DNA from: a virus
Lineage: Duplodnaviria > Heunggongvirae > Uroviricota > Caudoviricetes
Direction: 5' to 3' (one strand)
Virus record (IMG/VR): IMGVR_UViG_3300005715_000008
DNA: 5,325 nt
The notes beneath the pieces were generated by a model, which saw only the letters and a list, made by a program, of their open reading frames with translations, made no database searches and was not told where the DNA came from. The first letter of the stretch is position 1; every line of letters starts with the position of its first letter. The position numbers were made by a program, and so were the translations under genes. Below, piece after piece: positions 1-5,202 of the stretch.

Positions 1-1297
1 AACGCTTGAGCCGGAAGCGTTTTCAATTCCGCTCTACCGGAAAGCCTTCGAGGTTATCCGCAAGCAGGCGCGAAACAGAAACCTAATCGACGCGCTGATG
101 GTTGCCGAGGCGTGCGGAGAGGAGCATTTCACGTCAATCCTGATGACCAGCAAAAACTGCCCGAGTGCCGCAAACCTGAAGGGATATGCCGGAATGGTCG
201 CGGATAACTATCACCGCCGTCTGGTGCTGGAAATCATGGATGAAATGCGTGAACCAATTCAGAGCGGAACCATCGACGCATCGAGTCAGGCGATGGATGA
301 GCTTGTAAAGCGTCTTTCAGCCATCAGAAAGCCCCGTGACGAGGTTAAACCGGTACGGTTAGGGGAAATCATCACTGACTACACTGACACGCTTGACAGG
401 CGTCTGAGGAACGGAGAAGAGTCAGATACCCTGAAGACCGGAATCGAAGAACTTGATGCCATCACCGGAGGGATGAATGCGGAAGACCTGGTGATAATCG
501 CTGCTCGTCCTGGTATGGGGAAAACCGAACTGGCGCTGAAGATTGCCGAAGGCGCTGCAAGCCGCGTTATTCCTGGTTCTGACGTCCGGCGCGGGGTGTT
601 GATTTTCTCAATGGAAATGAGCGCATTGCAGATTGCAGAGCGAAGCATTGCCAACGCCGGGAGGATGTCGGTTAGTGTGCTGCGAAATCCTGCAGCGATG
701 GATGACGAAGGCTGGGCGCGCGTTGCTAACGGCATGAGTCAGCTTGCAGATTTGGATGTATGGGTAGTCGATGCCTCGCGGGTATCGGTCGAAGAAATAC
801 GCTCAATCGCAGAACGGCACAAACAGGAAAATCCAAACCTCTCACTCATCATGGTGGATTATCTTGGCCTGATTGAGAAGCCGAAAGCAGACCGCAACGA
901 CCTCGCAATTGCTCACATCTCCGGAAGCCTGAAGGCGATGGCGAAAGACCTGAAAACGCCTGTTATCTCCCTGAGTCAGCTTTCGCGCGATGTTGAGAAG
1001 CGACCAAACAAACGCCCGACAAACGCAGATTTGCGTGATTCAGGAAGCATTGAACAGGACGCAGACTCAATCATCATGCTCTATCGGGAAGCTGTATATG
1101 ACGAGAACAGTAGCGCCGCGCCATTTGCTGAAATCATCGTGACGAAAAACCGTTTTGGCTCGCTTGGTACGGTTTACCAGCGGTTCTGCAACGGACACTT
1201 TGTTGCATGTGACCAGGATGAAGCCAGACAGATTTGCACAGCATCAAATGCACCTGCTGCGCGTGGCAGACGATATGCACAAGGGGCTGACGTATGA
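1..1297 (+). CDS. Replicative DNA helicase, DnaB family (phage P22 gp12-like); 5'-truncated, reading frame continues from position 2 upstream of the first ATG at 98
   Basis: Open frame from window edge (frame 2) through stop TGA at 1295-1297. Translation contains a DnaB-type Walker A motif (AARPGMGKT) and overall DnaB-like organisation, with an N-terminal-domain-like segment upstream of the first Met. Position immediately upstream of the nin region matches the replication module of lambdoid phages. Confidence 0.85.
379..735 (-). other. Antisense ORF inside the helicase gene; judged non-coding
   Basis: Lies entirely within the strongly supported helicase CDS on the opposite strand; Ala/Ser/Arg-rich translation typical of a reverse-frame artefact of a GC-rich gene. 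Listed only to record the rejection. Confidence 0.1.
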
Positions 1298-1322: not shown

Positions 1323-1354
1323 AGGCCTGCTGGTAATCGCAGGCCTTTTTATTT
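1323..1354 (+). terminator. Rho-independent terminator, tR2-like
   Basis: Perfect 8-bp inverted repeat AGGCCTGC (1323-1330) / GCAGGCCT (1339-1346) with an 8-nt loop, followed directly by TTTTTATTT. From memory this closely resembles the lambda tR2 hairpin upstream of ninB, but that is not verified. Confidence 0.75.
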
Positions 1355-1369
1355 GTGGGAGAGGGAAGT

Positions 1370-1696
1370 GTGGCTGACTGGCAAATTCCAATCATCATTC
1401 TTGCCGGAGCTTCGCTGGTTGCTGGCTTTATCCTGCTGAAAAAGCATAAAGACCGTGATCAAAAAGTCGAAGTTCTCTATGGGTATCCAGCGAACAGCAC
1501 AACATGGCTGACCATTTACCACTACCGAAAATCAGGACGCTGGGTATTCGAATGGGATGATCTGTTCGCTGAAAAGCGACCAAAGTCATGGGGAGACATC
1601 AGCGAATGCATGATGTTTGAAGAAAGAAAATCCGGCGCAACCCGAGAAGAGTTTAACGAAGCGTGGGCGCGATTAAGTGAGAGAGGGTATTTGTGA
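1370..1696 (+). CDS. Hypothetical small membrane protein (one N-terminal hydrophobic helix, about 108 aa from GTG 1370)
   Basis: ORF 1355-1696 in the track. GTG at 1370 is preceded by a purine-rich RBS GGGAGAGGGAAG (1358-1369), whereas GTG 1355 abuts the terminator T-tract with no RBS. Hydrophobic stretch IPIIILAGASLVAGFILL followed by KKHK (positive-inside). Stop TGA overlaps the next start (GTGA). Confidence 0.5.
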   Translation: MADWQIPIIILAGASLVAGFILLKKHKDRDQKVEVLYGYPANSTTWLTIYHYRKSGRWVFEWDDLFAEKRPKSWGDISECMMFEERKSGATREEFNEAWARLSERGYL

Positions 1697-1893
1697 GCAA
1701 GTACGAAAAATTAGATCAAAACATTCTTTCAATCCTGAGTGAAAGACCAACACCTGTTTTTGATATCTGGCTTAAATGGCGGAGCAATGGAATGTATATC
1801 GAAACCATCGATCGCCGTATGCAATACCTGAGAAAGAAAGGGCTTGTTGCAAATGTGCGTGGGAAGGGTTGGGTGAAAATTAACCTGTCATAA
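1693..1893 (+). CDS. Hypothetical 66-aa basic protein, possibly DNA-binding
   Basis: GTG start at 1693 overlapping the upstream stop (GTGA), GAGGG-type RBS about 7 nt upstream. Lys/Arg-rich C-terminal half (RRMQYLRKKGLVANVRGKGW) that by eye resembles a winged-helix recognition helix plus wing; weak, unverified. Confidence 0.45.
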   Translation: MSKYEKLDQNILSILSERPTPVFDIWLKWRSNGMYIETIDRRMQYLRKKGLVANVRGKGWVKINLS

Positions 1894-1904
1894 CGGGGAT
1901 TGAT

Positions 1905-2258
1905 ATGGACGAATCAAGAAAGTCTTTCGAGCAATGGGCATCAAAGCAATTCAATATCTCAGTAGAGGAAATTGTTAATAAGCGAATGCTGGGTGATTAC
2001 CTGCACAACCCAGACTTACATAATGCATGGCAAGCATGGATAGATAGCAGGGCGGCAATAGAAATTGAGCTACCAAAGCCTCATGCACATCTTATATGGA
2101 TTCAGGCTGGTCATGCGCCTGACGATTATTGGGATGATGTGGCGGTGTCATATAGCGAAAAGGATAAATGCTGCGACGGTTCAGACCGCTATCCTGTGCA
2201 TGCTGGATGGGAAATTGAAGAGGTTCTTCGCGCCGCTGGAATCAAAGTGAAGGAGTAA
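1905..2258 (+). CDS. Hypothetical 117-aa acidic protein, unknown function
   Basis: ATG at 1905 with GGGGA RBS 5-10 nt upstream; stop TAA at 2256-2258 immediately before the ninB RBS/ATG. No family recognised by eye; contains a CC pair and several His/Asp/Trp residues. Confidence 0.5.
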   Translation: MDESRKSFEQWASKQFNISVEEIVNKRMLGDYLHNPDLHNAWQAWIDSRAAIEIELPKPHAHLIWIQAGHAPDDYWDDVAVSYSEKDKCCDGSDRYPVHAGWEIEEVLRAAGIKVKE

Positions 2259-5046: not shown

Positions 5047-5121
5047 GGGTCAGTCGTATAAAGGTCATTACGGAAGGCTGTTAACCTTCTTATCGTGGTT
5101 CGAGTCCACGCTGTCCCGCCA
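5047..5121 (+). tRNA. tRNA gene, anticodon GUU (Asn-like), 75 nt with encoded CCA
   Basis: Manual cloverleaf: acceptor 5047-5053 / 5111-5117 (one U-U mismatch at pair 4-69), U8, D-arm with A14 and G18G19, anticodon stem GAAGG/CCTTC with loop CTGTTAA (U33, anticodon GTT), 4-nt variable loop, T-arm CGTGG-TTCGAGT-CCACG, discriminator G, CCA 5119-5121. Confidence 0.6.
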
Positions 5122-5126
5122 AACAT

Positions 5127-5202
5127 GCTGGTTTAGCTCCAATGGTAGAGCAGTCGCCTTGTAAGCGAATGGGTAGCGGTTCAAGTCCGTTAACCAGCAC
5201 CA
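5127..5202 (+). tRNA. tRNA gene, anticodon UGU (Thr), 76 nt with encoded CCA
   Basis: Manual cloverleaf: acceptor GCTGGTT (5127-5133) / AACCAGC (5192-5198) perfectly paired, D-arm GCTC-CAATGGTA-GAGC, anticodon stem 5153-5157 / 5165-5169 (top pair non-Watson-Crick) with loop CTTGTAA (anticodon TGT), T-arm AGCGG-TTCAAGT-CCGTT, discriminator A, CCA 5200-5202. Confidence 0.7.

Follow-up and report, generated by a model that had tools for sequence, protein, structure and literature searches.

A gene between the helicase and ninB genes of a lambdoid prophage encodes a phiTE_015-family protein with an additional, unnamed C-terminal domain

The 5,325-nucleotide stretch of viral DNA analysed here, referred to as the window, is part of the right-hand early region of a lambdoid/P22-like prophage. 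Its features, and those of the 117-residue protein that is the subject of this work, are collected in Table 1. The tR2-type terminator of the window lies in a 76-nt block (1294–1369) of which 94–99% identical copies are found beside ren or a helicase gene, and a 1.45-kb query containing this block matched 2156 of 5426 complete E. coli genomes. The equivalent site is annotated as tR2 in Sf6, and the block looks like a common mosaic boundary. The 113-residue product encoded next to it has a hydrophobic stretch near its N-terminus (IPIIILAGASLVAGFILL) and may be a membrane protein. This ORF is not annotated in E. coli strain F5, which has the 117-residue protein gene and everything downstream of it in common with the window. 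The gene corresponding to the small basic protein at 1693–1893 is named DUF7301/PF23975 in other loci (RefSeq name and precomputed Pfam label), and the protein gives weak matches to winged-helix regulators such as HTH_Crp_2 and IscR. The 66-residue allele of the window differs from the 71-residue allele that adjoins the identical target gene in other prophages.

Table 1. Features of the window and of the gene at 1905–2258; residue numbers refer to the 117-residue protein, and boundary blocks were defined on an alignment of four alleles described in the text.
Feature	Position	Strand	Remarks
DnaB-type helicase gene	98–1297		Upstream part of the window
Lambda tR2-type intrinsic terminator	1323–1346	+	Hairpin AGGCCTGCTGGTAATCGCAGGCCT followed by T-run TTTTATTTGT
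113-aa ORF	1355–1696		phrog_5903 (E 8e-76), catalogued without function
66-aa basic protein	1693–1893		phrog_7185, pI 10.2; directly upstream of the 117-aa ORF
5' boundary block	1886–1922	+	RBS GGGGA, ATG and first six codons (MDESRK)
117-aa ORF	1905–2258	+	ATG start; product identical to RefSeq WP_249534668.1 ('hypothetical protein')
N-terminal module, residues 1–52	1905–2060	+	Three-helix bundle; PF26207, phrog_343 core
C-terminal domain, residues 53–117	2061–2255	+	Small alpha/beta domain, no Pfam name
H60-A61-H62	2082–2090	+	Kept in the main clade only; lost together with C89/C90
P72-D-D-Y-W-D-D78	2118–2138	+	At and just after the hairpin turn; most conserved surface motif
C89-C90-D91-G92	2169–2180	+	D91 and G92 invariant; Cys pair clade-specific
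3' boundary block CGCGCCGCTGGAATCAAAGTGAAGGAGTAA	2229–2258	+	Encodes RAAGIKVKE*, the last beta-strand and the ninB RBS
NinB, NinE, NinF, NinG, NinH, Ser/Thr phosphatase and Q genes	3' of the 117-aa ORF		In that order
tRNA-Asn (GTT)	5047–5121		Just downstream of the Q antiterminator gene; ARAGORN and Rfam
tRNA-Thr (TGT)	5127–5202		Downstream of Q, after tRNA-Asn; ARAGORN and Rfam

The gene is tightly packed with its surroundings. Its GGGGA Shine-Dalgarno sequence occupies positions 1895–1899, with the ATG 5 nt further on, while the TAA stop codon (2256–2258) is followed by the ninB ATG at 2261 and the ninB RBS (AAGGAG, 2250–2255) lies within the last codons of the ORF. A first, sequence-only reading of this DNA had described an acidic ORF with an RBS, an ATG and tight packing against the ninB RBS, and all of these are present. 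The product has a pI of 5.04, with 22 aspartate and glutamate residues versus 13 lysine and arginine residues and a net charge of about −9. The cysteine pair and the His/Asp-rich segment pointed out in the same reading are likewise found, at C89-C90 and at residues 60–78 (HAHLIWIQAGHAPDDYWDD), respectively. An AlphaFold2 model of the full protein, computed from a 79-sequence alignment from which three phage-record rows were left out, has a mean pLDDT of 92.4 and predicts a compact, two-domain fold without a long helix. Homologues with 50–75% identity occur in Serratia, Hafnia, Enterobacter, Klebsiella and Pectobacterium phages, and full-length ones are found in Enterobacter, Serratia, Hafnia, Brenneria and Pectobacterium phages. 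The exact protein is encoded on 374 contigs, every one of which names it 'hypothetical protein [Escherichia coli]', yet a DNA-level copy of the allele is present in only 1 of 5426 complete E. coli genomes (strain F5, WP_249534668.1). Hence, the allele is widespread but rare.

The 117-residue ORF is a genuine, conserved, protein-coding accessory gene and not a chance ORF. That it is instead a spurious or decaying ORF without function is extremely unlikely. The annotation of the product as hypothetical only, the laboratory dispensability of nin-region genes (PMC8022706) and the existence of a few truncated or chimeric copies would fit such a reading. These copies are P0007 (138 residues), which is identical up to residue 76 and unrelated over the 62 residues that follow, P0237, in which the tail is replaced after residue 114, and P0169, a 54-residue N-terminal fragment. 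Conservation across genera, invariant residues, the confidently predicted fold, the proper RBS with tight operon packing, and the occurrence of the exact sequence on so many contigs all speak against it.

The tR2-type terminator upstream places the gene in the N-antitermination-dependent (nin) part of the pR operon. No promoter-like sites were found within 1200–2400 and no internal terminator was found between 1426 and 2400, that is, before ninB, so the N-antiterminated pR transcript should be the sole source of expression. From these signals, the protein should be made during infection or induction and not during lysogeny. An independently expressed 'moron' was considered and is thought unlikely on the same grounds. 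The gene thus shares with those of the lambda and P22 nin proteins (Ren, NinA–NinH, NinX/Y/Z) the same operon, the same tight packing and the same overlapping RBS and stop signals, and presumably also N-dependent delayed-early expression and dispensability. The proteins themselves are without sequence relationship to the 117-residue product. With the Nin Pfam models, the neighbours match NinB (1.7e-54), NinF, NinG and NinH whereas the 117-residue ORF matches none, in agreement with the original statement that it belongs to no lambda/P22 nin family.

The protein does have catalogued relatives. It matches phrog_343 (E 4.9e-19, residues 1–117), and PF26207 (Phage_phiTE_015) is the precomputed Pfam label of the exact product in six loci, where it carries no 'weak' mark (E≤1e-5). 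A Pfam-A scan of the ORF gave no match, which is a version gap since the release scanned predates PF26207. The lack of any match to NCBIfam, and of any PADLOC defence profile at E≤1 (0 families, with the full protein or with the C-terminal domain alone), is by comparison a true lack of match. The sequence-only reading, according to which the protein has no recognisable family, is therefore superseded as far as the name is concerned, and stands to the extent that both families are without known function; the homology found is to catalogued families and includes no characterised relative. Judged by these profile matches, the protein is a member of PF26207/PHROG 343, a membership that names it and does not explain it. 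Literature searches on phiTE_015, PF26207 and nin-region accessory genes yielded no functional data and no mention of phiTE_015 or PF26207.

The basis of the family name is the N-terminal module, which is predicted by AlphaFold2 to consist of helices at residues 2–16, 20–28 and 36–51 and which carries the motif F8-E-x-W11 ... W42-x-x-W45-x-x-S48-R49. Gene 015 of the Pectobacterium phage phiTE, the eponym of the family, itself matches phrog_343 (E 8.6e-21) and shares both the N-terminal module and the short size with the window protein. It begins MNSRAQFEEWAK...TWEAWEASRAAIEVELPE where the window counterpart reads MDESRKSFEQWAS...HNAWQAWIDSRAAIEIELPK, and the two were aligned by eye over FE.W...W.AW.ASRAAIE.ELP, the phiTE_015 pattern being F-E-x-W ... 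W-E-A-W-E-A-S-R-A-A-I-E-V-E-L-P. The PF26207 label tracks this N-terminal motif and is absent from 87 of the 120 best homologues, namely those with the C-terminal domain only. Hence, PF26207 covers only residues ∼1–55. The PF26207/phrog_343 profile does not cover the whole protein, and the C-terminal domain alone gives an E-value of 2.2e-4 on phrog_343. In phage phiTE (L014 8969–9647), there is an overlap between phiTE_015 and the beginning of phiTE_014, the annotated product of which is a Lar-like restriction alleviation protein, and a NinX-like ORF is found three genes away from phiTE_015. This arrangement points to a nin-like accessory cluster in a virulent Vequintavirinae phage.

Other members of PF26207/PHROG 343, such as Sf6 gene 48 and orf86 of ST64T and L, occupy the same slot of lambdoid phages, between the replication genes and ninB, and RefSeq names other alleles in this slot 'phiTE_015 family protein'. 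Further similarities are mentioned in the sequence records, to 933W L0091 in that of Sf6 and to Orf41 of Pseudomonas phage D3 in that of phiTE. Most enterobacterial PHROG 343 alleles also share the AAG[IV]KVKE tail of the window protein. However, most named members have a short (25–45 residues) and variable C-terminal part, whereas the window protein has in its place a 65-residue domain with the signature HAH...PDDYWDD...CCDGS.

In the AlphaFold2 model, this C-terminal domain is composed of a strand (residues 53–55), a beta-hairpin (∼62–70/74–82), a helix (101–110) and a terminal strand (114–116), with C89-C90-D91-G92-S93 in a loop. Folded alone, the domain has a pLDDT of 92.3, and its secondary structure agrees with that in the model of the whole protein, with the hairpin at 61–70/74–81, a short strand at 96–98 and the helix at 101–110. 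Searches of the PDB by sequence (one single-sequence and two profile searches) found no relative, and a comparison of the predicted fold with solved structures gave no significant match. The domain is 65–85% identical across Enterobacterales prophages, in which it is attached to many different N-terminal parts, most often to those of coiled-coil 'ead/Ea22-like' proteins from Klebsiella. Specifically, it is 75–85% identical to the C-terminus of many prophage proteins of Klebsiella, Kluyvera, Raoultella and Enterobacter that range from 70 to 335 residues and whose N-terminal parts are unrelated to the window protein. At E≤1e-10 to the domain there are 81 cluster representatives (50% identity), most of which have different N-terminal parts. 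PF13935 (Ead_Ea22) is the label of 34 of the 87 best homologues that lack the N-module, and other carriers have no label or are labelled as an MT-A70 fragment. Six proteins (P0100, P0101, P0016 and P0018–20) consist of the phiTE_015 module, a short coiled coil and then the C-terminal domain, and from its sequence the window protein looks like this architecture minus the coiled coil. The two-module anatomy of the protein and its gene context are well supported. As a separate observation, in the Klebsiella-type protein P0173 (190 residues) the complete domain precedes another copy, which is shorter and degenerate (KLPKTMYTEFDNDDYCREVAVLD...ALTAAGIKVEAE). This extra copy is similar to the short C-terminal parts found in Sf6 gene 48-type alleles, suggesting homology between the long and the short C-terminal regions.

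The PF13935 label raises the question of how the protein relates to Ea22. Ea22 proteins are composed of an N-terminal domain, a coiled coil and a variable C-terminal domain. They favour lysogeny, and the C-terminal domain has been proposed to bind a host protein (PMC10834534). The Klebsiella Ea22-like carriers, some of which start with the phiTE_015 module, end in a close relative of the window domain, and one such carrier is also located in a nin region. Like the window protein, Ea22-like proteins are early accessory proteins of modular build whose C-terminal domains can be swapped (PMC10834534). However, the PF13935 profile does not match the window protein at E≤0.1, while P0034, a Klebsiella protein with the same C-terminal domain, matches it (9.3e-8) via its N-terminal part. 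Instead of an Ea22-type coiled coil, the window protein is predicted by AlphaFold2 to have three short helices packed as a bundle, and the gene lies in the pR operon between helicase and ninB whereas lambda ea22 lies in the exo–xis region (pL). The window C-terminal domain and lambda Ea22 are unrelated in sequence (BLASTP E=23), and the structure of the lambda Ea22 C-terminal domain (PDB 8DSX) is absent among the fold matches listed. The likeness to Ea22 is therefore one of architecture shared through third-party proteins and not homology to lambda Ea22, and the window protein reads as a coiled-coil-less relative of the Ea22-like proteins in architecture and not as a member of that family.

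Gene-scale exchange is evident when alleles of the slot are compared at the DNA level. An alignment of four of them (the window, E. coli MB06171, Sf6 gene 48 and phage L orf86) shows that the first ∼40 nt and the last 30 nt are conserved and that the middle varies in both sequence and length. The same 3' tail is found in Sf6 gene 48, phage L orf86, MB06171 and PEC422, and the variable middle is flanked in the AlphaFold2 model by the strand at 53–55 and the terminal strand at 114–116. In sequenced phages, the alleles are between 246 and 357 nt long. The 354 nt of the window gene are identical in seven further loci (L001 and L006–L011), with the stop codon as the sole difference in one of them, and the replication, lysis and head genes differ among these loci. 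In six other prophage backgrounds, sequence identity to the window extends no further than 19 nt upstream of the ATG; on the downstream side it ends 22–3067 nt past the gene, depending on the locus. Exchange is also seen within the gene, as in P0004–P0006, which retain both ends and the C-terminal domain while residues ∼12–40 are swapped. By sequence comparison, the gene is a mosaic cassette, an instance of classic lambdoid mosaicism at gene scale and below.

One allele bears on whether the domain is needed. Strain MB06171 has flanks 97.9% identical to those of the window, and its slot holds a 94-residue allele without the HAH...CCDGS domain. Absence of the ORF from otherwise near-identical prophages had been named at the outset as a result that would refute the reading, and MB06171 supplies such a result in part. 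What MB06171 lacks is the His/Asp/Cys domain; an ORF is still present in the slot. The function of the C-terminal domain would thus be dispensable or replaceable, since a near-identical prophage does without it.

Conservation was assessed with 64 representatives and with a non-redundant set of 21 domains. G69, P72, D73, D91 and G92 are invariant family-wide, and W65, D74, Y/F75, W/Y76, D/E77, D87, S/T93 and G112 are nearly invariant. H60, H62, C89 and C90 behave differently. All four are present in 52 of the 64 representatives and are almost fixed in the main clade, but they are replaced in a divergent clade from E. coli, Salmonella, Citrobacter and Pectobacterium, the sequence of which runs LPNQACLATWHYAGSPPDDFYEDIEISRNPSKDKSVDGTEP... 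(P0192, P0194, P0197, P0201 and P0290–P0301). H70 varies freely (H/R/Y/N/S).

These patterns bear on the original suggestion that the His/Asp-rich segment could bind a metal. The segment is not a linear metal motif, given the free variation of H70 and the loss of the other His and Cys residues in the divergent clade, and the suggestion is not borne out in that form. A family-wide metal site is ruled out by conservation, and the His/Cys site cannot define the family. In a narrower version, based on sequence patterns, the product would be a small metal-binding (probably zinc) protein with a clade-specific site formed by H60/H62, where the first hairpin strand begins, and C89/C90, in the loop after it, that is either structural or involved in redox or ligand sensing. 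The high frequency of all four residues fits this version, as does the fact that the seven divergent sequences without H60 also lack an intact C89-C90 pair, the joint loss expected of cooperating residues. In addition, residue 88, which adjoins the Cys pair, is assigned to an isolated bridge by DSSP, and the loop may lie against the H60/H62 strand. However, the joint loss maps to one phylogenetic split and so represents a single event and not independent covariation, and neither the variable H70 nor the Pfam scans, which gave no zinc-motif family match, favour a metal site. Moreover, the other elements of the domain signature (W65, G69, PDD[YF][YW][DE] and DG[ST]) are retained in the divergent clade, so the His and Cys residues are dispensable for the fold and presumably also for the function. 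We regard the metal-binding explanation as unlikely.

The residues that do persist throughout the family are the best candidates for a functional surface, on grounds of conservation: the acidic/aromatic tip of the hairpin and the D-G loop. Among near-identical E. coli copies (the 15 listed of the 35 members of the 90%-identity cluster of the exact protein), 10 distinct single substitutions occur, four of which (D74N, W76L, W76C and D77G) fall at residues 74–77 (window 2124–2135), inside PDDYWDD. In a post hoc scan-statistic simulation this clustering has P∼0.018; counting the six N-terminal changes of P0002 as well raises the value to ∼0.12.

We tentatively propose, with a probability of roughly 0.35, that the 117-residue protein, produced early in lytic growth, is an effector that binds another protein and has no enzymatic activity. 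Its partner, conserved across Enterobacterales and most likely a host protein, would be contacted by the hairpin (G69 and P72-D-D-Y-W-D-D78) and the D91-G92 loop of the conserved C-terminal domain. The N-terminal bundle, or the coiled coil in Ea22-like versions, would be an interchangeable scaffold or oligomerization part, and the protein would modulate, in a non-essential way, host physiology or the course of the lysis–lysogeny decision, as reported for Ea22. This proposal follows from the acidic, soluble and small nature of the protein, from its having no catalytic or DNA-binding signature, from the conserved surface hairpin, and from the presence of the domain on many scaffolds. With low confidence, we consider the protein to be neither an enzyme nor a DNA binder, in view of its pI of 5.0 and its lack of any Pfam, NCBIfam, PADLOC or PDB match. 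The earlier suggestion that it inhibits a host function is plausible as a putative role. However, the conservation of the domain fits equally well with a conserved phage protein, a small ligand or a metal as the target.

A phage-encoded partner could lie close at hand. The acidic protein might act as an antagonist or co-factor of the basic DUF7301 protein, to which it is opposite in charge, or as a partner of NinB. The gene for DUF7301 (PF23975/phrog_7185) is directly upstream in the window, in F5, in L006, L008, L010 and L011, and in Sf6 (gene 47), and the position of the ninB RBS inside the last codons of the ORF would allow translational coupling. The upstream neighbour is not constant, however, being phrog_1165 in PEC422, phrog_2814 in phiTE and a MarR/Ren-like gene in phage Ymer, which rules out a conserved DUF7301 partner as a family-wide feature. 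Furthermore, the gene downstream in Sf6 and phage L is not ninB, and the Klebsiella Ea22-like carriers of the domain do not adjoin DUF7301. An explanation in terms of a phage partner is accordingly improbable in our judgement, and a host partner of the proposed effector is preferred.

Mimicry of nucleic acid, also raised in the sequence-only reading, would have the protein act like Ocr or ArdA and block a DNA-binding enzyme of the host. An acidic protein with a DDYWDD cluster, encoded in a slot of the variable accessory region in which lambda holds ren, is compatible with such a role, as is the position of phiTE_015 beside a Lar-like restriction-alleviation gene. However, Ocr and ArdA need a very high negative charge on an elongated surface, while the window protein has a modest charge of −9 spread over 117 residues and a compact predicted fold with no significant match among solved structures. 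The mimicry claim is thus not sustained, and we consider it very unlikely.

A more specific form of the effector proposal is that the C-terminal 65 residues are an undescribed fold that serves as a portable 'warhead', binding and neutralizing a single conserved host factor, such as a member of an immune or stress pathway, via the PDDYWDD hairpin, with the phiTE_015 bundle or Ea22-type coiled coils as scaffolds. This is doubtful, and if it were true, then D74N, W76L, W76C and D77G would be interface changes selected to escape sensing or to relieve toxicity.

Nothing in the gene points to a new kind of system, and the protein is an ordinary accessory-gene product with one mildly interesting orphan domain. 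The main result is a correction of the annotation, from the RefSeq 'hypothetical protein' to a phiTE_015-family protein with an extra, unnamed domain. That domain is highly conserved, is without a relative of solved structure, and is shuffled between nin-region and Ea22-like proteins, the sole reported role of the latter being in the lysis–lysogeny decision. As a defined, soluble module of 65 residues with a candidate interface, it offers a tractable handle on the host or phage partner of these modular early proteins.
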